34,757 bases of DNA from Verrucomicrobiota bacterium (GTDB taxonomy: Bacteria; Verrucomicrobiota; Verrucomicrobiia; Verrucomicrobiales; DEV007): positions 1 through 34,757 of the forward strand of contig JASFYY010000041.1 in assembly GCA_045046875.1 (NCBI GenBank), in the 5' to 3' direction. Each line of letters opens with the position of its first letter. Within the stretch, counting starts at the first letter, position 1. Of the stretch, positions 3,481-34,757 are shown in pieces. The notes below the pieces were generated by a model. The model did no database searches and was not told where the DNA came from. It saw nothing but the letters and a program-made list of their open reading frames with translations. Position numbers and translations under genes: made by a program.

Positions 3481-5385
3481 ATGAAAAATATTTTGTTCTA
3501 TTTTGGGCTCCTGTTGTTGGTATCGCTTAGTTCCGGACTTGCCGAGGAGGAGAACCTGGTGCTCAACCCATCGTTTGAACAAGCCGCAGCAGAGGGGGTG
3601 ACTGTCGAGGATTGGGTGACTCGTGAGGGCATTCCGGTAGTGCGGAGTAGTGAGGGCGGGCATACGGGTGAGGCCTTCATGCGTTTTGACGATGACAGCC
3701 CGAAAGAAGGGCAGTTCCTCGAATCTCGTCGGGTGCCAGCACGGCCTGGTGGCAAGTACACTGCATCGGCCTGGCTGCGTAGCTCGGATGCCTGCCGTCC
3801 TGGCGTTTATTTGAATTTCTATGATCTCAACGGGGTTCGCATCGCGCATCGGTACGAGAGGATCAATGGTTCTTCGAAGGACTGGCAGCGGGTTGAGGTG
3901 GTGGAAAACGCTCCGAAGAATGTTTGGGAGGTGGCTCTGGCTATCTACTCTTATTCGGGAGACGTCGGGGTGTTCGATGCCGATGATGCGGACTTGCGTG
4001 TCGAGGGCGGCAGCGAGCCGGGACTGGGTGGTCTGACTCGACTTAAAACCGGCGACAAAGGCGTTTATCGGATGGGTGGCCGGCGAGAACTTTTTGTCGA
4101 TCATTTTCTTATCGATTCGATTGGGGGGGCGGCAGAACGGCGTTTGCACCACCCGGTTCCCCGCGAGGTGGTGCTGAAGCTGGACCGACCTTGGGAGGGG
4201 GAGACATCAGCCTACTTTGCTTTGGTGAAGGACAAGGATCGTTACCTGCTTTATTACCGGGGCTACGCAGGTCCCGGCAGTGCTGGGCAGGTTTGTTGCG
4301 TGGCGGAGAGTGCCGACGGCATTCACTTCAGCCGGATCGAGGCGGGCCAGTTCGAATTCGAGGGATCCAAGGCAAATAACATCGTGTGGCGCGGAGTTGG
4401 GGGGCATAACTTTACTCCCTTCCTTGATCCGAATCCAGCGGCAGCGGCGGACGAGCGTTTCAAGGCGATGGGGTATTCTCACCAGGGTAAGGGGCTCGGT
4501 GTTTTTGGTTCTCCGGATGGGGTTCGTTGGCATGAACTGCTGGACCGGCCGGCGATCACCGACGGCGCTTTCGATTCGCAGAATGTGGCCTTCTTTGACG
4601 TCGAGCGTGGTCACTATGTGGATTTCCACCGCAAGGGACGCAAGGGGGTGCGCGATATCATGACCTGCACCAGTAAGGACTTTCGTAATTGGACCGATCC
4701 CGTTTTTATCGAATACGGGGATGATCGGCTCGAGCACCTCTACACGAATGGTATCCTGCCCTACCCGAGAGCTCCTCATATCTATCTTGGGTTGCCTGCC
4801 CGCTTCGTGCCGACGAGAACGAAGATGGTCGATCGCAAGGACCCAGGTGTCAGTGATGCCGTGCTGATGAGCAGTCGCGATGGGAAAAATTTCGAGCGTT
4901 GGTCCGAAGCTTTCATTCGTCCTTCAACGGAGATAGAAGTCTGGACCGACCGCAATAACTTCCCTGCCTGGGGTATGGTAGAAACGGCGCCAGGCGAATT
5001 GTCCGTTTACTGGACTGAGCACTATCGGCATCCCGGTATGAGACTGCGCCGGGGCACTCTGCGAACGGACGGGTTTGTATCTCTACATGCGGGGGGTGGT
5101 CCGGGAGAGGTTTTGACCCGGCCTATGGTTTTTGATGGCTCAAGTCTGGAGATCAATTTTGCCACTGATGCGGTCGGATGGCTTAGGTTTGAAGTCTGCG
5201 ACGAACAGGGCAAGGCGATCAAGGGACTCTCTTTCAATGAATCGAAAATCATGTTCGGCAACGAAATCGAAGGACGGGTGGCGTGGAGAGGGAAGGGGGA
5301 TCTGGCTGCTTTGGCGGGGCGTCAGGTAAGGCTGAGGATCCGCTTGGAGAATGCCGACCTTTACTCGCTGCGATTTGTGAAGTGA
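3481..5385 (+). CDS. Secreted protein: CBM4/9-like domain + beta-propeller glycoside-hydrolase-like domain + C-terminal beta-sandwich
   Basis: Signal peptide from MKNILFYF. NLVLNPSFE CBM-type start, RELFVD, repeated S.DG..W/F Asp-box-like motifs, FDSQN, LRTDGFVSL. The ORF-track start 3286 lies just upstream of repeat A and the ORF reads through it. Confidence 0.7.
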   Translation: MKNILFYFGLLLLVSLSSGLAEEENLVLNPSFEQAAAEGVTVEDWVTREGIPVVRSSEGGHTGEAFMRFDDDSPKEGQFLESRRVPARPGGKYTASAWLRSSDACRPGVYLNFYDLNGVRIAHRYERINGSSKDWQRVEVVENAPKNVWEVALAIYSYSGDVGVFDADDADLRVEGGSEPGLGGLTRLKTGDKGVYRMGGRRELFVDHFLIDSIGGAAERRLHHPVPREVVLKLDRPWEGETSAYFALVKDKDRYLLYYRGYAGPGSAGQVCCVAESADGIHFSRIEAGQFEFEGSKANNIVWRGVGGHNFTPFLDPNPAAAADERFKAMGYSHQGKGLGVFGSPDGVRWHELLDRPAITDGAFDSQNVAFFDVERGHYVDFHRKGRKGVRDIMTCTSKDFRNWTDPVFIEYGDDRLEHLYTNGILPYPRAPHIYLGLPARFVPTRTKMVDRKDPGVSDAVLMSSRDGKNFERWSEAFIRPSTEIEVWTDRNNFPAWGMVETAPGELSVYWTEHYRHPGMRLRRGTLRTDGFVSLHAGGGPGEVLTRPMVFDGSSLEINFATDAVGWLRFEVCDEQGKAIKGLSFNESKIMFGNEIEGRVAWRGKGDLAALAGRQVRLRIRLENADLYSLRFVK

Positions 5386-5552
5386 GTCTCGTTGCTATTA
5401 CCGATGGAGGGAAGCCGATCGCCGCCGGTCAGCACCCTCAAACGATTCGGGGCGATCAATCTGAAAGGTGGCGAGAAATCAGGATTCGGAGGTCATCGGG
5501 TTTGAGGGGAAAAATACCCTCTGTTCTAAGCGGTGTAAATGAATCAGACTTA

Positions 5553-5650
5553 GCCCTTCCTTCCTTTTGCTCTTTCCAACTCCAAGTCAGTCAGTAACAA
5601 ATCTATCTTCGGTGAGGCTATGGCGGGCAATAGAGTGGGGGAGGAGAAGG
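5553..5650 (+). repeat. Dispersed hairpin-like repeat, copy B
   Basis: cttcggtgaggctatggcgggcaatagagtgggggagg aligns with tttcgctgaggcgatggcgggcaagagagcaggggagg of copy A. CT-rich left arm is present. Confidence 0.7.
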
Positions 5651-5736
5651 TGAATTCTCATCGATCTCGAATTTCGCAGGCTTCCATTTTTCTGGTGATG
5701 GGCATATAATCCTTGACTCACAAACTGATGTAAATA

Positions 5737-6420
5737 ATGAACTCAAAATATTTTACGGCGATATTATTAATTATTGCTGCCATTGGAATGGGAATGGCTT
5801 GTCACTTGTATCCAGTGGAGAATGAATTTTCGCTTATGCGCTGCACGGTTTCCTTTCTGGGGTCTCCAGATTCAGACCGGAATCCTCAGGGGTGGAGGTG
5901 GCATCAGATTGGAATGACCTCACTGATACTGGCTCTGGCACAGATGGTTTGGTGGAGACATCGGAATTTCTATCCCTTCACTGGGGTGAAGATAAACAAA
6001 GCGACGGTTCTTTATGCTGCTGGATTTGTATTGATTCTCATTTCGGTTTGGATTGCAGATTCTGATGAGATCCTTTGGGGAGGAATTCGCTCAGGAGTGA
6101 TCCATACGAATGTTGCAATCATTGCAATAGTAACCTTGCTGGTTGCTGTGAGTCTGGATGGAATGATTCTCTCGCGTGCGGGGCTGCCGAGTAAAGCACA
6201 ATGGCCGTTTCGTATTTACGCATGTATCTGGCTTGTCACTATTTGTTGTCTGGCGTCGTGGCAGTGGAAATGTTGGAGTGACCCTAATTTGGAACACTGG
6301 CCAGGTGAGGGTATTCATTCAACTCCGATGTGGGAGTGGATATTGCTGGCTTACCTGATAGGCTTTGTGATATGGATTTCTCGACGTCGATTGGTGGAGT
6401 CGATGCCCGCAGGGGATTGA
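5737..6420 (+). CDS. Multi-pass membrane protein (possibly DUF998-like)
   Basis: 227 aa, ~5-6 hydrophobic helices. FS....VSFLG after TM1 and IH...A in TM4 resemble DUF998. Confidence 0.6.
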   Translation: MNSKYFTAILLIIAAIGMGMACHLYPVENEFSLMRCTVSFLGSPDSDRNPQGWRWHQIGMTSLILALAQMVWWRHRNFYPFTGVKINKATVLYAAGFVLILISVWIADSDEILWGGIRSGVIHTNVAIIAIVTLLVAVSLDGMILSRAGLPSKAQWPFRIYACIWLVTICCLASWQWKCWSDPNLEHWPGEGIHSTPMWEWILLAYLIGFVIWISRRRLVESMPAGD

Positions 6421-6432
6421 TGTTGTTAGGAT

Positions 6433-7842
6433 TCACTGGGGGGCGGGTTTTTGCGTGTTGATCAAGGCGTGCATCAGGTTGACGAAATAGCTGCCTCCCG
6501 TTGGTCCGAGGAAACTCATCTGCGCTTCGTAGGCTGATCCCTCAATATAAAGATTGTTTGGTAGAATATAACCTAGATAATCACCTTGAAAATTACTGAT
6601 CGTCAATCCTGATAGCCCGGCTTCTGTGGCGTAAGTTCGAAGAGGTTTGGATAATAATCCAGAAACTTCGATCGGAACACCCACCCAAAGGTGGTCATCT
6701 ATTCGGAGTGTTGACAAGTGAGCCCGTGGTTGGTGGATTAGGCTAGTCACGAGTGGCGAAGCACGTAGAGACGATCCGAAGCGTATTTGTAATTCTGGAG
6801 TCGGAAGCTCGAATTCATTCGCAGAAAGCCGTGCTGTGCTGTGAAATTTGACTGATTGAAGCTGCTCCAGTAACAAACGAGCCAGACCTCCACCTATATC
6901 AGCCACGCGATCCGACCTGTTCCCTGAAGTCACGGGCGAGTGGCTACCTGTGTTGCCGGCAGCAAAAGCTGCAAAATCGATTTTTTTTGTTGCTTCAAGA
7001 GTTCTCACTAGATAACCAGGATAATCACCGGATAGCTCCAGATTCTCATCTGACAGACAGGTTGCATGTGCACCAAACACTGCGAGTAAAGCCACTTTAT
7101 CAATGCCACCCTTATTTTTTTTCAGCACCAATGCCTCCAGAGTTCCATCGACCCCGGCACCATGGGCACTTCGATTGCGCATGTATTGCGGTGCCTGCGT
7201 CTCAATCCAGGCGTAGCTTGCCGGCGCGAGGGCATCGACAGCGGCGATCACGCTTTTACTTATGGCTCGAATCAATTCCTCCACTACGTCCGGATTGTGT
7301 GGGCCGGCGATCAATTCCTCGACGATTACAGATCCCCATCCGCCGGGACCAGAATGGGTATGGGTGGCCGTGAACAACAGTATGGGCGTTTGCGAACCGA
7401 GGTGGTTTTGAACTTGTTTGTAAACGGCATCGGCGTTCGGGGCGTTTACCAACAACAAATCCGTGCAAATAATAGCCACCGTGGAGATTTTTTCTTGGTT
7501 ATTATTCTTGTCACTGCTTTGCAATACCAGACTCCTTGCTGCCAGTAGTTCACCCGCCATGACGCCCGTTGATGCCGCACCAAGTCGCGAGCCATAACCC
7601 GCCAGAGGAATGCCTTGGGGGAGATCAAAGGCTTCGGTAGCCCAGCCTGCCTTAAATGGCTGCAGTGATCGAGCAACATGTTGATCGTGCAACTCATTGC
7701 CCATACGGGTAATAAGTTGCAGCGCATCAGCTTCAGGTTTGCTATCTGGATGACGATCAAGCGGCCACGGGCCAATGGTGATGAGGCAAGTCACCAGCAT
7801 CCCGCCTGTGACACTGAAAACCCATTTGCGTCGTTGTGTCAT
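6433..7842 (-). CDS. Neutral/alkaline ceramidase-like amidohydrolase, membrane-anchored
   Basis: PLAGYGSR, L.ARSLVL, ATHTHSGP, AHAT, LSGDYPG and YLGYI motifs, plus an N-terminal TM helix. Start at ATG 7842 is chosen; the ORF extends to 7890. Confidence 0.8.
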   Translation of the reverse strand: MTQRRKWVFSVTGGMLVTCLITIGPWPLDRHPDSKPEADALQLITRMGNELHDQHVARSLQPFKAGWATEAFDLPQGIPLAGYGSRLGAASTGVMAGELLAARSLVLQSSDKNNNQEKISTVAIICTDLLLVNAPNADAVYKQVQNHLGSQTPILLFTATHTHSGPGGWGSVIVEELIAGPHNPDVVEELIRAISKSVIAAVDALAPASYAWIETQAPQYMRNRSAHGAGVDGTLEALVLKKNKGGIDKVALLAVFGAHATCLSDENLELSGDYPGYLVRTLEATKKIDFAAFAAGNTGSHSPVTSGNRSDRVADIGGGLARLLLEQLQSVKFHSTARLSANEFELPTPELQIRFGSSLRASPLVTSLIHQPRAHLSTLRIDDHLWVGVPIEVSGLLSKPLRTYATEAGLSGLTISNFQGDYLGYILPNNLYIEGSAYEAQMSFLGPTGGSYFVNLMHALINTQKPAPQ

Positions 7843-11323: not shown

Positions 11324-13276
11324 TTAGCGTCTGAACCAGCCGCGCTTTTTGGGGGGGGCGTTGAGGGGGGCGGGTCTGGTGGGTTCGTCGAATTCTGAAT
11401 CGTCGATCACTCCGGGCAGGGCGTGGGCTTCTTGGGCCTTTTGAGGTGCAGAGCCGATCAAGGCCGGGCCTTGGTTGGGTGGGGTCATCTGGCTGCCGGA
11501 TTCGCGCACGCTTGTTTGCGCGGCGGGTTTCTTTTTTTCGGGCAGGGAAAAACCCGCGGCTCCGTCCACAATGGTTTCGATTTCGCCTGAGCGGGAGAGC
11601 TGCAGGGACTCGAGCAATTCGGCCAGCTGTTCGAGGAAAAGGTGCAGGTCGAAGGTCACCACACAGTCGTTCACTGCGTTATAATTTTCCTGTAAAAACT
11701 TGCGTAAGGAGTTGAGGGCTAGGAATAAGGATTCGTCTGGGATGGACCCATACTCGAAGTGGGTGCCGAGCACCAGTTGCTCGGTGATGGCGATGAAGTT
11801 TTTATACAGCATGCCCTCTGCGCTGGGGCATTTCTCCCGGTTGAGGCCGCTCTCGATGCGTCCGGCGGGAGGGGCGGCGATGAGGCCCTCGGTGGTGGGG
11901 TAACAGCGCAGTTTGAGCGAAAAATCGGGCCAATGATCCACCCGGCGCTTTTGCAACTCACGGGTGCGGAAGCGGGTTTCGTGGGGGAAGTGAATCTGGA
12001 TGCTGTGGATCGACAGGCCGAGGATGGGGATGCGTGCCTCTTTGGCTTGATTGATGGCGTGGCGGATGAGGTTGAGCAGGATGATCGTCTCGACGGCCTC
12101 GAGCTGGTTGTGACGCAGGGCGAGGAAGTCGGAGAGGGAAAAACCGATGGTGGGCTCTTCGACCACCAGAATGGCTTGCTCAACTTCCCGGATTTCCCGG
12201 GCGGGCAGCAAATAGCTGTGAACGGCGGGGTCGATCTTGGCGAGATCCTGTTGCAGCCTTTTGCACTCAATCTCAGGCCAGGTGTGGGCGCGTGGCAGGA
12301 TGTGGATGTTGGTTTCTACCTTGGAGCCATCGAGCTCAAACTCGGCGGTTTCGGTGTAGATGTGGTAGTCATCCTCGGCGGCCTCAGTGATCTGGTATTG
12401 GCCGGCGAACTCTTTTTTGAGATCCAGATCTGAAAACAGTTTTTGTTTCAAGCGAAAGGCGGGCAGCAGGCGTTTGGCAATGGGTGGGGACTTGAACCGC
12501 GAGCCCTTGGTGATTTTTGGCGAGACCGCGCTGTAGGCATCACGCAGTTCTTTGCGGAATTCGGTCAGTGAGGTGGGGCCGTTGCCGGAAGTGGTGGAAA
12601 GGGTGTGCTTGAGAATGAACTTCACGTTGGCGGGCAGGGTGTCCAGATCGGTGATCTGCTGGTCGCCGCCTTTGGGCTGGTAGGGTTTGGCGGTGAGCAG
12701 GAAATAGAGAATCTGGGCGATGCCGGAAATCATCTTTTTCGGTTTGATGGTGACCGAGGGCAGTTTTTCATCGCAGGCGAGGCTGCAGTCGGAGATCTGC
12801 AGCGCCAGATGGGAGTGTTGGCTCGATACCACTTGCAGGCGGCCAAGGTTCAGGCCCTGCAGCAGGCGGGCTTTTGACTGCATTTGGAAAATGACATCGG
12901 TGAGCTGGATAGTGAGTGCCAGGGTCAGGGCGGTGTCGAGCGGGCCGTTGCGTTTGATGTAGGTGGTGATGGATTCGCCATCACTGATCTGGGTGGTGTA
13001 GTAGTGCAGGCCGTCGCTGTGGCCGACGTCGAGGATCTTGCAGCAACAGGGGCTGTGCAGGCTGGCAGCCATCCAGGCGCGATCGGTGAAGGACTTCCGG
13101 GTGTCTTCGTCGAAGCTTTCGCTTTCCGGCAGGATGTGCAGTTCGACCAGGCTCAGGGTTTCCGGATCAAAAGCCAGGCAGAGCATTTCCTTGGCGACCC
13201 CGGGGAAGGTCGCCGGGCTGCCGTCTGAACCTAAAGAGATAAAGTATCGACCAAACTGTTCTAGATCTTGAGTCAT
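11324..13276 (-). CDS. Tandem Ser/Thr pseudokinase-like protein
   Basis: Hanks-type scaffold (FGRY, LAFD, F..RA..AASLHSP...KILDVG..DG..YY, GES....IKRNGPL) but VAIK is VELH, HRD is LQG and DFG is DCS. A second degenerate kinase-like unit follows. Start ATG 13276. Confidence 0.7.
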   Translation of the reverse strand: MTQDLEQFGRYFISLGSDGSPATFPGVAKEMLCLAFDPETLSLVELHILPESESFDEDTRKSFTDRAWMAASLHSPCCCKILDVGHSDGLHYYTTQISDGESITTYIKRNGPLDTALTLALTIQLTDVIFQMQSKARLLQGLNLGRLQVVSSQHSHLALQISDCSLACDEKLPSVTIKPKKMISGIAQILYFLLTAKPYQPKGGDQQITDLDTLPANVKFILKHTLSTTSGNGPTSLTEFRKELRDAYSAVSPKITKGSRFKSPPIAKRLLPAFRLKQKLFSDLDLKKEFAGQYQITEAAEDDYHIYTETAEFELDGSKVETNIHILPRAHTWPEIECKRLQQDLAKIDPAVHSYLLPAREIREVEQAILVVEEPTIGFSLSDFLALRHNQLEAVETIILLNLIRHAINQAKEARIPILGLSIHSIQIHFPHETRFRTRELQKRRVDHWPDFSLKLRCYPTTEGLIAAPPAGRIESGLNREKCPSAEGMLYKNFIAITEQLVLGTHFEYGSIPDESLFLALNSLRKFLQENYNAVNDCVVTFDLHLFLEQLAELLESLQLSRSGEIETIVDGAAGFSLPEKKKPAAQTSVRESGSQMTPPNQGPALIGSAPQKAQEAHALPGVIDDSEFDEPTRPAPLNAPPKKRGWFRR

Positions 13277-29064: not shown

Positions 29065-30672
29065 TTAATGATTCTGACCGGGCCATAACGAAGTGGGGCT
29101 GCCGGCATCGATCATTTTTTGAAGTTCGCTTTCGCTCAAGGCACGTTGCCACAGGATGACTTCATCCATGCGACCGCGTAGGCTGCGGACGGGGTTTTCC
29201 CATTCGGGGTGAGGTTTCCAATCACCGAGGCGGCAGGAGCCGGGGGTGATGAGGGCGTCTTTTTCCAGGTAAGCGGTGGAGGAGAGTTTGCCGTTGACGT
29301 AGGTGTGGACTTTTTTGTTTGAGCCTTCGCCGACGACGGCGAGGTGAACCCAGTGTTGCAGTGGCAAGGGGCTGGGGAAGTGGTCGCGTTTGCTACCGCC
29401 GTTGTAACCAAAGGTGAAATTCCGACGACTGCGGGAGATTTGAAAATGGGTGTCGCCGGGCTCCCATTGGTCGGAATCGAGGATGGTGGAGAGCTCGTGA
29501 TCCAAGCGATTGACTTTGACCCACACGGCTAAGGTGAAAGCGCTGAGAGGTTCTGGAATGTTAAGCAAAACCGCGTCGTGGTCGCGTTCGAAAAGCAGAG
29601 CATCCTTGTCCGGCCAGCGGCCGCTGACCCAGATGGGGCCCTGAATGATACCGTCTTCGACCGGACTGTTGTTTGCTTGGTTTTTCAGAATAGAGCTGTT
29701 GGCTTGACGGGTGAAGTCATAATAGAACAATAAGGAGGGATCTTTTTGCACGGCTAAGCTCCAGTTTTTCCAGCGTTGATAGCCGATCGACTGGGGGGTG
29801 GGGAAGGCATCGGCCTTGAGGCGGGCACCACTGGCGACCTGACCGTTTTCCATGGTGTAGGACTGGCCCAGGCTGGCGGCTTGCAACAGGGTTTGATTGT
29901 CGCTGCTTTTGATGTCAACCCGCCCTTCAAAAACATGCAGTTCGCTGGTGCCTGTTTTAGAATCGACGGAAACTCCGAACTCAGTGCCGAGGTCTTCAAA
30001 ATCTATCTGCGGAGCACCGATAGTGAAGCCGATTCCACTGTCGGGAACGATGGCGCGCATGCTGCCGTGATGCAGGGAGATATGAAAAGGGTCGATGATT
30101 TCGAAATCGACGGGGGCGCGGTAGATCAAATCCACTCCGTTGACAAAACGCATGTGGGCAGCTCCGCTTTGCAGTTGGTAACGGCCGGGTTTGAACTGAA
30201 CCACATCGGGGCTGTGTTGCGGGCTGAAGTCAGCGGAGGCTTCGCTGACCAGCAGAGCGGCGATGTTGCTTGCGGTTTTTTGTTGGGAGACAGGGTTGGT
30301 ATCAGTTGTGGTTTGGGTGACGGTGACTGGTGCGGGCTTGTCGGAATTTTGTTTAAAGACGGGTCCAATGATACCTGTCAAGGTTAAGGCAGCGACCACA
30401 CTGGCCGCGGCGGCTACGATCCACGCCGGCTGCAGCGGCCAGCTTCGGCTGCTGCTATTTTGTTTGGCGGGATCAAAGGCCAGCTGATCCATGGTCGCAG
30501 ACATTTTTTCGGCTTGAGCCCAATCGCTCAGAATGGCTTCTTCGTTGGCCAGGCTGATAAGTTGTTCGCACAAGTCGGGTTCTGATTTCAGCCGTTGTTG
30601 TAATTGGTGTTCATCTTGCGGGGACATATCGCCCTGCAAGTATTCCATCAGCAGTTCGTTGTTTTTTTTCAT
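29065..30672 (-). CDS. FecR-like anti-sigma factor with C-terminal LamG domain
   Basis: N-terminal anti-sigma helices, single TM, DLGTEFGV..LHVFEGRV (FecR), GRWPDK.AL.F, FTLAVWVK, WVHLAVV..YVNG, G.MDEV.LW.RALS (LamG). Confidence 0.88.
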   Translation of the reverse strand: MKKNNELLMEYLQGDMSPQDEHQLQQRLKSEPDLCEQLISLANEEAILSDWAQAEKMSATMDQLAFDPAKQNSSSRSWPLQPAWIVAAAASVVAALTLTGIIGPVFKQNSDKPAPVTVTQTTTDTNPVSQQKTASNIAALLVSEASADFSPQHSPDVVQFKPGRYQLQSGAAHMRFVNGVDLIYRAPVDFEIIDPFHISLHHGSMRAIVPDSGIGFTIGAPQIDFEDLGTEFGVSVDSKTGTSELHVFEGRVDIKSSDNQTLLQAASLGQSYTMENGQVASGARLKADAFPTPQSIGYQRWKNWSLAVQKDPSLLFYYDFTRQANSSILKNQANNSPVEDGIIQGPIWVSGRWPDKDALLFERDHDAVLLNIPEPLSAFTLAVWVKVNRLDHELSTILDSDQWEPGDTHFQISRSRRNFTFGYNGGSKRDHFPSPLPLQHWVHLAVVGEGSNKKVHTYVNGKLSSTAYLEKDALITPGSCRLGDWKPHPEWENPVRSLRGRMDEVILWQRALSESELQKMIDAGSPTSLWPGQNH

Positions 30673-31256
30673 AGACCGCCTTCCTGTGAAAGTTTGTTAT
30701 CAACGCAATCGCGCAGCACCAGGCGGATGCGTTTTAATAAAGCGTAAGTGCCTTGCACGCTGCGACCGAATTGCCGGGCAATGGATTCGACCGGTGGAGT
30801 GGGTTTGTCGTAGCGCATGGCGATCATACGACGGCTCTCGGTGGGTAATTGCTCCAGGCAGGTGTGCAGCAGATGGCGTTGGGATTGCTTGCGCTGTTGT
30901 TCTTGTTGATCGATGCGCTCTGCGGCTTGTGAGAGTTGGTCGAGCAGGTCGTCGTCGATCAGTAATAGTTGTTTGTGTTGGCGGACGTGGGAGAGGATGC
31001 GGCGGCGGGCGATTTCGCGTGCCCAGGGAAGGAAGCCGTTTTCATCGCGCAGTTGGGAAAAGGAGGTGGCGATGGCGAGCGAGCTTTCCTGAAAGATGTC
31101 GTCGGTATCCGCGTGGTTGCGGACGGCGGCGAGGATGTAGGCCATCAGGGCTGAGCGGTGTTCTAACAGCAGACGGGTGATGGTCGGGGCATCACTGGTC
31201 GCGCCGTTGCTTGGCAGCTTGGAGGGCTCGGATTTGGCTGGATTTTTTTCAGACAT
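30669..31256 (-). CDS. ECF sigma-70 factor (Rhodopirellula/Verrucomicrobium type)
   Basis: L.AYI.A.VRN..D.DDIFQE, FLPWAREIAR, CLEQLP..SR.MI.MRY, LKRIRL.LRDCV. ATGA overlap with the anti-sigma gene. Confidence 0.92.
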   Translation of the reverse strand: MSEKNPAKSEPSKLPSNGATSDAPTITRLLLEHRSALMAYILAAVRNHADTDDIFQESSLAIATSFSQLRDENGFLPWAREIARRRILSHVRQHKQLLLIDDDLLDQLSQAAERIDQQEQQRKQSQRHLLHTCLEQLPTESRRMIAMRYDKPTPPVESIARQFGRSVQGTYALLKRIRLVLRDCVDNKLSQEGGL

Positions 31257-31756
31257 CAACAGACTAGGTATAAGTAAAGGCGGCTTTTCATTGTATTAGG
31301 CAAAAAAAATGAAGTTTTGTTGAGTTTTTTTTCAGAGGGGAGCCACGGGAGGGGGTAAGACAAAATAGTTAAGCTGCTGATCGCTATGCGTTTCGCCCTT
31401 GCAGGACTGGAAGAATTGGATTTTTTACCCAGCGCTTCGCACTGGGCTATCACATTGAGCACCGTTGGTGCAAAAGAGATGAAAGCAAACTGTCCTAGTG
31501 CCAATTTATTTGTTCACTGTAGTTTTTTGCGCATTAGCGTTTGTCATTTTCGGATTAATTTCGACCTAGTTAATATGTAGGATATTGATGATGCTGAAGT
31601 GCCAGTTGAGGGGGGCCGTGTGATTGTTTTTTCAGTGTAAGAGCCGCGCGGACAGATTTGGAAATCTATCCTACGGGGGAGGGCGGATTTTTTTGCCTTG
31701 GATATTGATTTAAAGCGGCTTGCTTTTGGAACTTGATTTCGCGACACTTTGCCTTG

Positions 31757-33601
31757 ATGGGAAAATCCAAAGATAACGATGCTGGAACGCCGCGCTGGAT
31801 GCGGGATTTGCGCCGCTTTTTGCCTTTGCGCAGTCAATTTGTGCTGTGGGGCAATGTGCGGGATCGTTTTGCCTGGCATCAGGGGGAGCATGTGCTGCCA
31901 TTAGGGCTGGCGGAATATCTGGCGGCTCATCTGGCGCAGAACGGGGTGCCGCATTTTTTATCTTTTACGATTGCCGAGGGTTTGAGGATTGTGCCGCGGC
32001 TGGGAATGGAGCTGGACAAGGAAAAAGAATTTTACGCTGAGCGTTTTGGCCTGAAGTGGAGTGAAGATGAGGATGTGCTGCCGATGTCGAATGATGCTTT
32101 TTTTACTCTGATGGGAAGGCTGTCCCAGAATGACGAGGAACCGGTCGGGCTGGCGGTGGACATGGCGTCACGATTGATCGTGAGGGACGAGGCGATCAGT
32201 GACTGTGAACATGGGCTGTTCACCAAGGCGTTGTTGTTTTCCCAAAGAGCGCGTCCATTGGCGGCGTTTGGCGAAGAGGAATCACCGAGTCCGCGTTTTA
32301 ATGCGGTTTTCTGGTTGTTGGATCGCGAGGGGGATTTGCCTGACTGGCTGGTGCTGGAAAATCCGCGGTTGCGTTCCATTCCGATTCCGGTGCCTGATTC
32401 CGGATTGCGTAAGGTTTTTATCAAGGCGTTGTGCCGTGAGGGGAGGGTGAGCGATGAGACGGTGGATGATTTTGTTGATCAGACGGAGGGAATGCGACTG
32501 GCGGATTTGTTGGGCATTGTGCAACTTTGTCGGGCGGAGGGGCTGGATTTCAGCGAATTGCCGGAAGGCGCGCGACGCTACAAACTGGGGGTGACGGAAG
32601 ATCCTTGGAAAAAGATCGATCATGACAAGATAGCCAAGGCGGACGAGTTTGTGCGCAAGCGGGTGATGGGACAGGATCGAGCGGTAACAGCGATGCTGGA
32701 TATTGTGAAACGTGCGGTGATGGGTTTTTCCGGGAGCGGCAAACGATCCGGTCGCCCGCGCGGAGTGGCTTTTTTGGCGGGGCCGACCGGGGTGGGTAAA
32801 ACGGAACTGGCGAAGACGGTGACGGAGTTGTTGTTCGGAGATGAGAGGGCATATATCCGTTTTGATATGAGCGAGTTCTCTGCCGAACATTCGGATCAGC
32901 GTTTGATCGGAGCGCCTCCGGGTTATGTGGGTTATGACTCAGGGGGTGAACTGACCAATGCGATTCGCGAACGTCCCTTTAGTCTGGTATTGTTCGACGA
33001 GATCGAAAAGGCCCATCCGAAGATCCTGGATAAGTTTTTGCAGATATTGGATGACGGGGTGCTGACTTCCGGTCGTGGGGAGCGGGTGTATTTTTCCGAG
33101 GCGGTGATTGTATTCACTTCCAATCTGGGGATTTATCAAATGGAGCCGGATGGCACTCGCAGACTGAGTGTGACCAGTGATGACGATTATGAAACCGTGG
33201 AGAGTCGGGTCAAGACAGGGATTGAGAACTTTTTCAAACTGGAGCTGGGGCGTCCGGAGATTTTGAATCGACTGGGGGAGAATATTCTGGTCTTTGATTT
33301 TATTCGACCGCAGGTGGGCGAGGCAATTTTTGGTTTTATGTTGAAGAAGATCCTTGCTGATCTGGAGAGCGCGACGGGGATTGCGATTGAGATGAGTGAG
33401 TTGGCTAGGAAGACTCTGCTGGGTATTTGTTTGGCGGATTTGTCCAATGGAGGCCGGGGGATACGGAATCAGTTGGAGGCACGGTTGGTGAATCCTTTGG
33501 CGCGGGCTTTGTTTGATGGAAACTTTACCAGTGGGGATCGGGCGCAAGTCTGGTCAGTGGCGGTGGCACCTGACTTGCCTTTGGTTGAACTGATGAAATG
33601 A
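31757..33601 (+). CDS. ClpB/ClpA-like AAA+ ATPase with one intact (D2-type) module and a degenerate N-terminal module
   Basis: V.GQD.AV, GPTGVGKTELAK, RFDMSEF, LIGAPPGYVGY, LFDEIEKAHP, FTSNLG, RPEILNR, GGR. The N-terminal ~280 aa have no Walker A. Start ATG 31757. Confidence 0.88.
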   Translation: MGKSKDNDAGTPRWMRDLRRFLPLRSQFVLWGNVRDRFAWHQGEHVLPLGLAEYLAAHLAQNGVPHFLSFTIAEGLRIVPRLGMELDKEKEFYAERFGLKWSEDEDVLPMSNDAFFTLMGRLSQNDEEPVGLAVDMASRLIVRDEAISDCEHGLFTKALLFSQRARPLAAFGEEESPSPRFNAVFWLLDREGDLPDWLVLENPRLRSIPIPVPDSGLRKVFIKALCREGRVSDETVDDFVDQTEGMRLADLLGIVQLCRAEGLDFSELPEGARRYKLGVTEDPWKKIDHDKIAKADEFVRKRVMGQDRAVTAMLDIVKRAVMGFSGSGKRSGRPRGVAFLAGPTGVGKTELAKTVTELLFGDERAYIRFDMSEFSAEHSDQRLIGAPPGYVGYDSGGELTNAIRERPFSLVLFDEIEKAHPKILDKFLQILDDGVLTSGRGERVYFSEAVIVFTSNLGIYQMEPDGTRRLSVTSDDDYETVESRVKTGIENFFKLELGRPEILNRLGENILVFDFIRPQVGEAIFGFMLKKILADLESATGIAIEMSELARKTLLGICLADLSNGGRGIRNQLEARLVNPLARALFDGNFTSGDRAQVWSVAVAPDLPLVELMK

Positions 33602-34242
33602 GCGCCGTGAGTTTGAAGCTGAACAAGATGCATTTTCCGGTCACCACTCTGGGGCCGGGCAAGCGGATCGGGCTGTGGTTCAATGGTTGCTCGATCCAGT
33701 GCGAGGGCTGCATCAGTCGCGATACCTGGGAGTTTTCCGAGTCGAGTCGGGTTGAGCTGTCTGCGGTGATTGAAGTATTGGAAACCTGGTTGCCGCAAGC
33801 GCAGGGTTTGACGATTTCGGGTGGCGAGCCCTTTGATCAGGCCGGAGCTTTAGATGAATTACTATCCTGGTTCGAAAGGCGACGGGGAGAGCGGGAGGTG
33901 CTGGTGTATTCGGGATATGAGTTTTCGGTTTTGAGTCGACGTCACGGGGCGTTGTTGGGAAAAATCGATGCACTGGTGAGTGGGCCTTATGATGTCAATA
34001 GTGGTCAATCGAAGAGTTGGTGGGGATCGGATAATCAGCAATTGCATTTGCTGAGTGAGCGGGCGCGTATTCGATATGCCGAGCTGGAGGAAGCTGAGGG
34101 GCCGCAGCGGAAACTGGATGTGTTTGAGCAGGATGGGCAGTGGTGGTTTGCAGGGATTCCCCGCTCGGAGGATTGGCTGAAGATGCACGGTATGCTGGAA
34201 CAAAAAGGGGTGAGTGGAAAATTTTCTCATGCTGAGTGCTAA
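33598..34242 (+). CDS. Radical SAM protein, NrdG/PflA activase-like
   Basis: GPGKR..LWFNGCSIQCEGC (CxxxCxxC), GLTISGGEPFDQ, YSGY, ID.LV.GPY, GSDNQ. ATGA overlap with the ATPase. Confidence 0.88.
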   Translation: MSAVSLKLNKMHFPVTTLGPGKRIGLWFNGCSIQCEGCISRDTWEFSESSRVELSAVIEVLETWLPQAQGLTISGGEPFDQAGALDELLSWFERRRGEREVLVYSGYEFSVLSRRHGALLGKIDALVSGPYDVNSGQSKSWWGSDNQQLHLLSERARIRYAELEEAEGPQRKLDVFEQDGQWWFAGIPRSEDWLKMHGMLEQKGVSGKFSHAEC

Positions 34243-34757
34243 GCAAAATACTGGTAGCAAAGTTTGTGGGGTCTGTGGATTTGAGAATTCCGTGGTCGCG
34301 TTTTTGTGCCAACAATGCACCAATGATCTGACTTTTACGACGGTTAAGTTTCCTTCGCAGGTGTCGAGATCTTCAGCGGCAGCAGAGGTGAAAGAAGTGC
34401 CGAGGCGCCAGTGCGAAAACGGACATGAGCTGAGGCAGGGGGATTTGCTGTGTTTGGATTGTGGGGCAGCGGCGGTAGTGGAGAAAGAGGGTTCGCCATC
34501 GCAGGGGGGAGATTCTGAGCGGGTATTTACTTGTGGAGAATTGAGGGTGGAGTTGCCGGAGCAGGCGGTGGAGCATGAATTTTTCACTGTCGAAATTGGG
34601 AATCAGCGGGTTAGGGTTTTCCCTCAAGGGTTAGAGCCGGACGCCACTCTGCAGGATCGATTGATGCAGGTGCAGTCAGAGTTTGTCGCGACACTGCGAT
34701 CGCGGGGACGGGTGGAGGAAGATCGCAGTCGGTATTTTGAAGTGTGGGAAAACTCAC
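34229..34757 (+). CDS. Double zinc-ribbon protein, probably followed by a Ser/Thr kinase-like domain (runs off right edge)
   Basis: Not in the ORF track. Open from ATG 34229 to the window end: CGVCG..N.....LCQQC, CENGH.......LCLDCG, then VRVFPQGLEPD...FVATLRSRG...YFEVWE, which resembles a kinase N-lobe. Overlaps the rSAM stop by 14 nt. Confidence 0.7.
   Translation, partial: MLSAKQNTGSKVCGVCGFENSVVAFLCQQCTNDLTFTTVKFPSQVSRSSAAAEVKEVPRRQCENGHELRQGDLLCLDCGAAAVVEKEGSPSQGGDSERVFTCGELRVELPEQAVEHEFFTVEIGNQRVRVFPQGLEPDATLQDRLMQVQSEFVATLRSRGRVEEDRSRYFEVWENS

Follow-up and report, generated by a model that had tools for sequence, protein, structure and literature searches.

At the right-hand end of a 34,757-nucleotide (nt) stretch of DNA from a Verrucomicrobiota bacterium of the DEV007 lineage (GenBank assembly GCA_045046875.1, contig JASFYY010000041.1; the whole stretch is here called the window), three overlapping genes run in the same direction. 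They specify an ATPase of Clp/Hsp100 type (A), a radical S-adenosylmethionine (SAM) protein of NrdG/PflA type (B) and the start of a very large protein (C). The cassette that these form with a fourth gene, D, and the case for and against its being a defence system, are considered here. The gene order, already recognised in an initial annotation made from the letters of the window alone, was confirmed with the list of open reading frames (ORFs) and the raw sequence, and the features are as follows.

31260..31756, no strand: divergent spacer between an extracytoplasmic function (ECF)-type sigma factor gene (30669-31259, minus strand) and gene A
31757..33601, plus strand: gene A, Clp/Hsp100-type AAA+ protein, 614 aa from the ATG or 622 aa from a TTG at 31733
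33598..34242, plus strand: gene B, NrdG/PflA-type radical-SAM protein, 214 aa
34229..34757, plus strand: 5' end of gene C, the first ~176 aa of ~2,100, broken off by the contig end

The end of A (...ATG AAA TGA, finishing at 33601) and the ATG of B at 33598 share an ATGA, and the ATG of C at 34229 precedes the final nucleotide of the B stop codon, TAA, at 34242, giving the 14-nt overlap described earlier (for C a GTG at 34214 is an alternative start). The spacer, put at about 500 nt in the initial annotation, is 497 nt, from the end of the sigma factor gene at 31259 to the ATG of A at 31757 (for A a TTG at 31733 is an alternative start), and the promoter of the cassette is presumably located within it. 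As the window is an entire contig (C41) of a 163-contig assembly, the truncation of C is an assembly break, and the earlier remark that the operon is cut by the window edge was correct. A search with a full-length orthologue of C from the same genus (P0001, 2,106 aa) located the rest of the gene, residues 957-2106 at 85% identity, at positions 8-3457 of contig C148 of the same genome, and gene D lies downstream of it on that contig at 3610-4926. Residues ~174-956 of C are absent from the assembly, which is why DUF4011 was not found when the assembly was searched. A search with the C fragment of the window retrieved no longer homologues. In RefSeq the products of A to D go under the labels 'AAA family ATPase', '4Fe-4S single cluster domain-containing protein', 'AAA domain-containing protein' and 'hypothetical protein'.

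Conservation extends to all four genes, which sit next to one another and for the most part overlap. Cassette loci were collected by a pattern scan seeded with B, with one genome per species, which yielded 335 stretches confirmed by tblastn, and the best 80 of these were kept. In these 80, tblastn detects A in 79, C in 79 and D in 74; judged by ORF coordinates, A-B-C are contiguous and collinear in 74 and A-B-C-D in 70, and about half of the cassette gene junctions overlap. The ten exceptions involve four contig ends, three split C genes, one IS66 insertion, one locus without detectable D, and a permuted variant which accounts for two. Seven phylum labels are represented among the 75 A proteins placed in a tree (Pseudomonadota, Bacteroidota, Chlamydiota, Verrucomicrobiota, Acidobacteriota, Myxococcota and Planctomycetota), and genera with a whole-cassette locus include Stenotrophomonas, Bradyrhizobium, Rhizobium and Providencia. 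The proposal that a dedicated module is involved is thus borne out, and so is the joint conservation of the trio, with the amendment that the module has four genes and not three. Individual loci have their own peculiarities. In a same-genus relative (L013, genome G003) a gap of ~223 nt separates B from C instead of the 14-nt overlap of the window. One disrupted copy (L085) has an IS66-family transposase gene at 11847-12599, between B and C, and is missing gene A. In a metagenome-assembled genome of Chlamydiae (L061) a second A-like ATPase gene at 4877-6502, matching the PADLOC model PDC-M37B at 3e-28, is upstream of the cassette, and the C ORF is unusually long at 2,802 aa.

From its motifs and predicted structure, A is a two-tier Clp/Hsp100 ATPase in which a degenerate first tier (D1) is followed by an intact ClpB-type second tier (D2) with a D2-small domain. 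The second tier has the Walker A GPTGVGKT, the Walker B FDEIEKA, the pore loop GAPPGYVGY and the sequence RPEILNR, taken to contain the arginine finger, all invariant or nearly so in 55 homologues. Pfam matches to AAA_2 (8.5e-46) and ClpB_D2-small (1.2e-5) fall in the C-terminal half, with AAA_5 and generic AAA families besides, and the Pfam scan found no Clp_N repeat domain in A. A profile of the 55 homologues, searched against the PDB, meets the D2 tier of ClpC/ClpB at 8e-79 over profile positions 263-603 only. In the AlphaFold model (predicted local distance difference test, pLDDT, 84.3) residues 17-622 superpose on two-ring ClpB, ClpC and ClpA (6oax_E, Z 26.4, 486 residues aligned), compared with ~288 residues aligned to D2-only crystal structures (Z about 25, root mean square deviation 3.1-3.9). 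The N-terminal ~290 aa (about residues 20-290) therefore form a D1-like AAA+ tier, one without a P-loop: where GKT would be, the 55 homologues have invariant G40, N41 and D44. No long M-domain coiled coil was found in the model, and the IGF loop is absent as judged by eye only. All of this agrees with the anatomy given in the initial annotation, as does the conclusion that A is not housekeeping ClpA, ClpB or ClpC, A being far under every Clp equivalog cut-off in NCBIfam (ClpB 251.8 bits, 1.6e-74, against 1232.1; ClpA 202 against 993; TssH 207.3 against 885). Identity of A across phyla is 47-55%. Its matches to PADLOC models are PDC-M37B (1.3e-28) and, for the ATPase core only, DolB (2.8e-17).

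The assignment of the second gene to the activase-like radical-SAM proteins also stood. B matches Fer4_12 (1.3e-28), and in 55 sequences its CX3CX2C (C31/C35/C38), G75-G76-E77 and L18-G19-x-G21-x-R23 are invariant. Is it then simply NrdG? NrdG is its best NCBIfam match, at 93.5 bits (1.2e-26) under the cut-off of 126.1, with PFLA at 47.8 against 231.75, and many B homologues are publicly annotated 'anaerobic ribonucleoside-triphosphate reductase activating protein', or NrdG in JGI and some NCBI records. Its closest solved relative is PflA (3c8f, 2e-12), QueE being reached only at 3e-4, and the invariant LGPGRR loop of B aligns with DGPGIR of PflA (GPGxR), the loop which in PflA and other activases contacts the substrate peptide. 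B carries a C-terminal extension of ~60 aa. The genome of the window has a true anaerobic ribonucleotide reductase, NrdD (PF13597, 1e-174), with its own Fer4_12 activase gene directly downstream (contig C149, 33151-35305), and B is therefore a second, dedicated activase-like enzyme, distinct from the housekeeping NrdG. The family is large, with 822 protein clusters at E<=1e-20, and its named homologues include those of Burkholderia, Pseudomonas (P. putida, P. alliivorans), Serratia and Mesorhizobium. No fused form of B was seen among proteins of 376-2000 aa at E<=1e-10, which is weak evidence. Prediction of an A+B complex gave an ipSAE interface score of 0.00 in both runs, made without controls, and speaks neither for nor against binding.

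The third gene had been described as a zinc-ribbon/kinase component. The zinc motifs and a kinase-like domain are indeed there, but what the window shows is the head of a ~2,100-aa helicase-nuclease of the Hhe/PDC-S37/MkoA kind. In the window the fragment has two Zn-binding motifs, CxxC...CxxC and CxxxH...CxxC, with a kinase-like N-lobe beginning after them; the zinc-ribbon cysteines are conserved, Pfam DZR being met only at E 0.0086, under its cut-off, and the kinase-like part is detectable only in full-length homologues. In P0001 the two Zn motifs are followed by Pkinase (aa 196-349), DUF4011, AAA_11/AAA_12 (a superfamily 1, SF1, helicase) and an MTES_1575 PD-(D/E)xK nuclease, and the PADLOC models matched are PDC-S37 (7.7e-151, aa 951-2103), Hhe (2.2e-66) and MkoA (2.7e-46). 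The ~950-aa N-terminal part thus comprises the Zn motifs, the kinase-like domain and a helical region. Across 71 full-length canonical homologues, GKS of helicase motif I and DE of motif II are present in every one and the E-C-D of the nuclease in 69-70. Kinase columns, assigned by alignment to variants with canonical motifs, present quite another picture: the beta3 lysine is found in none of the 71 (T in 64, S in 3, R in 2, I and V in 1 each), the HRD aspartate in 59 and the DFG aspartate in 14, with R, D and D at the beta3, HRD and DFG positions in the genus of the window. The kinase-like domain of canonical C, that of the window's genus included, is therefore a pseudokinase, and the phosphorylation component proposed in the initial annotation is unlikely in this lineage. 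Family-wide, then, the motifs of the A second tier, of the radical-SAM core of B and of the C helicase and nuclease are conserved, and degeneration is seen in the first tier of A and in the kinase-like domain of C.

Gene D encodes a protein of ~450 aa, modelled (pLDDT 87.9, predicted template modelling score 0.83) as a helical bundle with a small alpha/beta domain. No Pfam family was found in it, Foldseek found nothing for its fold in the PDB at E<=1e-3, the D profile found nothing below E 0.03 among PDB sequences, and in the ESM Atlas it matched 'hypothetical protein' clusters only. The family is extensive: 1,713 representative clusters reach E<=1e-3, and 594 still reach E<=1e-30. For the small C-terminal domain of the model an exhaustive aligner repeatedly picked out KA1 domains, those of Chk1 (5wi2_B, Z 8.1, 91 of 93 residues aligned), AMPK (3t4n_A, Z 7.8) and SAD-B (5iri_B, Z 6.8), a signal of middling strength that serves as a lead, and in this sense the C-terminal end of D may be called weakly KA1-like.

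Departures from the canonical architecture are instructive about which parts belong together. Two verrucomicrobial loci (L027 and L028) have the order kinase (820 aa)-D-A-B-PP2C with no helicase-nuclease, and that kinase has both a canonical HRDLKPAN loop and the beta3 lysine. A plasmid of Aristaeella lactis (Bacillota) has in succession a DUF4011-helicase-nuclease, a kinase, a hypothetical protein, a double-Zn-ribbon-FHA protein, B, A, PP2C, DUF6273 and a further kinase, its A and B being 39% and 35% identical to those of the window. A adjoins B in every architecture seen and the kinase-like protein is always accompanied by a D-like protein, but the helicase-nuclease may be fused, stand as its own gene or be missing altogether. 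These variants give the kinase-D-A-B core active kinases, FHA and PP2C for company and do without a fused nuclease, so that the core has the look of a signalling switch and the nuclease that of an effector open to exchange.

How does the cassette relate to systems already known? Hhe is an experimentally validated single-gene defence system, a helicase with a Vsr-type endonuclease. Both it and PDC-S37 resemble C in uniting DUF4011, an SF1 helicase (AAA_11/AAA_12) and an MTES_1575 nuclease in one protein, but they are single-gene entries to which A, B and D do not belong, and C is embedded in A-B-C-D and has the extra ~950-aa N-terminal part. Mokosh type I consists of MkoA, a kinase with an Upf1-like helicase, and MkoB, a phospholipase D (PLD) nuclease. 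C is like MkoA in having a kinase-like domain and an SF1 helicase in one large protein, and MkoA models are matched at 2.7e-46 to 2.8e-52. Unlike Mokosh, however, there is no match to MkoB for A, B or D, nor for C among the matches listed, the nuclease is a fused MTES_1575 and the kinase-like domain is degenerate. Dodola pairs DolB, a ClpB-like ATPase, with DolA (DUF6414); while A resembles DolB, no other cassette protein matches DolA/DUF6414 (for C, among the matches listed). The second tier of A is typical of ClpB/ClpC (1e-79 to PDB chains), GYVG pore loop included, with Skd3 among its matches (7ttr_C, Z 23.5), but A differs from ClpA, ClpB and ClpC in having no Clp_N, long M-domain or first-tier Walker A, and in always being paired with a radical-SAM gene. 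B, for its part, is like NrdG and PflA in its Fer4_12 core, CX3CX2C, GGE and GPGxR loop, and unlike them in being under both cut-offs, in its extension and in that no glycyl-radical enzyme was found in the cassette.

The statement in the initial annotation that no named system was recognised still holds, none having been matched in PADLOC, NCBIfam or literature searches. Full-text literature searches found neither a description of the cassette nor a match for PDC-S37, nor, among the matches listed, a paper linking a glycyl radical with phage defence; for Fer4_12 (PF13353) there was nothing relevant by title or abstract among the matches listed. The four-gene assembly, with its activase-type radical-SAM protein and half-dead Clp motor, is in none of the libraries and papers searched, though the effector itself is of a known or candidate kind (Hhe/PDC-S37). 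Some leads were followed and dropped. The annotation 'probable radical activating enzyme' turned out to belong to K10026, an entry of QueE type. Ophion also uses a radical-SAM protein for defence but is a different system, with PHP and PRTase partners (bioRxiv 10.1101/2025.09.30.679545), and a paper on vWA-MoxR systems brought up by the literature search is unrelated to the cassette.

PA2725-PA2728 of Pseudomonas aeruginosa PAO1 may be this cassette, a candidate equivalence supported only indirectly. In the literature PA2727 is given both as a 'similar DNA helicase' and as a 'histidine kinase', and PA2727 and PA2728 as one gene (PMC3697988, PMC4918941). The right-flank genes of the P. aeruginosa core defence hotspot cDHS1, used as conserved flanking markers and not presented as a system in Johnson et al. 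2023 (PMC10250203), have, as described there, an order that fits D-C-B read backwards.

The cassette is rare and patchy. Among the 100 nearest relatives of the window's genome, B-like matches at E<=1e-10 occur in nine and the cassette in five (G003, G005, G009, G037 and G082); around the other four B-like matches, of 27-38% identity, neither A nor C nor D was seen within the 3.5-kb loci. Searches with the D profile came up empty in an even sample of 400 other genomes of the phylum and in 400 from the order of a Moraxellaceae carrier, at most four candidates having been scored per genome. In a further genome of the same genus (G001, L110, contig C51, 2337-2854) three fragments of A, covering aa 220-290, 294-330 and 452-520 at 65-78% identity, adjoin the conserved sigma/FecR flank with no cassette otherwise, and this is a decayed cassette. 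Copies are also present on megaplasmids of Rhizobium, a plasmid of R. leguminosarum included, and of Caballeronia.

The immediate neighbours of the cassette in the window and its genus are ordinary (sigma factor, FecR-like, DUF1553, glycoside hydrolases). More widely, 137 of 233 flanking ORFs from 31 of 32 loci were scanned, the more distal ORFs and all of those of L018 being dropped. PADLOC models are matched at E<=1e-5 by 21 of the 137, with no background computed, and strong matches (E<=1e-15) occur in the flanks of 10 of the 31 loci. They include AriA (2e-56), PD-Lambda-4_B (2e-85), Upx (4e-89), PDC-S15 (2e-56), four MkoA-like helicases, HNH and mad2, and as defence context they are suggestive. 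In three proteobacterial loci (L035, L060 and L074) a gene for an MkoA-like helicase of ~1,130-1,180 aa (MkoA E 3e-35 to 6e-41) is just upstream of A, perhaps as an accessory gene, perhaps as a system of its own.

What, then, is the cassette for? That a conflict or anti-phage role is plausible, as initially suggested, gains from the matches of C to the PDC-S37, Hhe and MkoA models and from a distribution like that of an accessory element, and we put at about even the chance that A-B-C-D is an undescribed anti-phage or anti-mobile-element system, a new multi-gene variant of the helicase-nuclease defence systems. For a protein target shared by A, B and C, as initially proposed, the analysis gave no support. 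The division of labour that we infer would have C as both sensor and effector, an SF1 helicase like those of Hhe and Mokosh whose MTES_1575 nuclease would attack invading nucleic acid, while its Zn-ribbon and pseudokinase head would, with D, hold it autoinhibited or sense the trigger. A and B, which are always adjacent, are taken to form a switch. In this, A, as an unfoldase with a single active ring, would remodel a protein of the system, and B, NrdG/PflA-like and with the GPGxR loop kept, could put a radical on a residue of a partner protein. It would take a bold step further, and a very improbable one, to see here the first immune system using protein-radical chemistry, with A opening up one of the cassette proteins and B giving it a backbone radical, glycyl or other, and the radical, oxygen-sensitive in hosts that are mostly aerobic, acting as an irreversible switch, for instance by backbone cleavage, that would free the helicase-nuclease from the pseudokinase/D lock.

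Several considerations weigh against a defence function or against the part proposed for the radical. No PADLOC model matches B or D, the likeness of D to KA1 is weak at Z 6.8-8.1, and the enrichment of defence models in the flanks is uncontrolled. Neither Gly_radical nor NRDD is found by Pfam in A, C or D, and no conserved RVxG[YF]-like motif was found in these three either: the only conserved glycines followed by an aromatic residue that a script picked out are G63-Y, G75-F and the pore-loop glycines of A, G770-F of C (within DUF4011) and G322-Y of D, none of them in an RVxG context. In phage records A has matches to its D2 half only, none of 178 spanning 80% of A, and blastn with A and B of Serratia gave no match in 5,426 complete genomes of E. 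coli; these two results say nothing about function. In the tree of the 75 A proteins the phyla largely keep to themselves (8 label changes, where 6 is the minimum and 23.3 the shuffled mean), from which it seems that the cassette has spread chiefly by vertical descent with loss and not by rampant transfer. Clear exceptions are few: Hahella groups with Bacteroidota, Acidobacteriota fall inside an alphaproteobacterial group, and a row of Pirellulaceae is on a long branch. Should the P. aeruginosa genes be the same cassette, it would be core there, which is unusual for a defence system.

The main rival, unlikely in our estimation though far from negligible, is a module for genome maintenance or stress in which the helicase-nuclease would process damaged or protein-blocked DNA, the unfoldase would strip proteins from it and the radical-SAM protein would repair or sense damage, or sense redox or SAM state. 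An A tree that follows taxonomy at phylum level suits it, as do the ordinary genes immediately flanking the cassette in this genus and in the window, the lack of a PADLOC match for 116 of 137 flanking ORFs and the report that the cDHS1 flank genes of P. aeruginosa, possibly equivalent, are core in every isolate (PMC10250203). Yet a maintenance function sits poorly with a distribution as patchy as none of 400 genomes in the phylum, none of 400 in the order and five of 100 close relatives, or with a decayed copy in a sister species; nor would it lead one to expect that C should be matched best by models of defence systems and of candidates for them, or that the FHA/PP2C/kinase variants resemble the signalling of conflict systems.

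Could A and B themselves be the effector arm, the unfoldase feeding a phage or host protein to B, or B making a radical-derived small molecule, so as to block infection, with the helicase-nuclease one add-on of several? The retention of kinase, D, A and B without helicase-nuclease in L027 and L028, the adjacency of A and B in every architecture seen and the invariance of the catalytic motifs of B are all in its favour. We nonetheless consider it rather improbable, as in 74 of 80 loci a helicase-nuclease with invariant catalytic motifs is fused into the cassette, and B is nearer to protein-directed activases (PflA, 2e-12) than to nucleotide-modifying radical-SAM enzymes (QueE, 3e-4). There is, finally, the notion that a housekeeping Clp chaperone and an NrdG activase happen to be beside an unrelated large gene, for which the NrdG-type names of so many B homologues might be cited. 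It deserves next to no credence, being already refuted by the fact that 74 of 80 loci, under seven phylum labels, repeat the same arrangement, in which the stop codon of one gene overlaps the start of the next; moreover, B is under the NrdG cut-off in a genome with a separate NrdD-activase pair, and A misses the ClpB, ClpA and ClpV equivalog cut-offs widely (251.8 against 1232.1 bits for ClpB).

If the cassette is a defence system, as we think about as probable as the contrary, it would add to anti-phage biology an enzyme of the glycyl-radical-activase type of radical-SAM protein, and an obligate pairing of radical-SAM protein and Clp-type unfoldase, neither of which the literature searches found there. 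It would also explain the role of a widespread orphan 'NrdG' often annotated as a ribonucleotide-reductase activase in aerobic bacteria. The pairing of a pseudokinase with a weakly KA1-like protein hints at regulatory logic shared with eukaryotic kinases, and the presence of the cassette in well-studied genera makes it directly testable.

Some features of the window have a less direct connection to the cassette. One copy of a dispersed repeat of ~146 nt is at 31351-31496, inside the spacer that precedes gene A. At E<=1e-10 the genome has 43 matches to the repeat (40 of 106 candidates scored), with many copies also in two genomes of the same genus, no stable RNA fold was found for it (z +0.84), and it may be an element like a miniature inverted-repeat transposable element (MITE) or a repetitive extragenic palindromic (REP) sequence. 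Within 31000-34757 no Rfam family reaches its gathering score, a single sub-threshold snoRNA match being regarded as chance. Over the whole stretch (1-34757), 33 of 34 one-kb windows have a strongly positive GC skew (0.04-0.38), and the AT skew is mostly negative, both independently of gene orientation, a strand asymmetry that is unusually strong for a bacterial contig.

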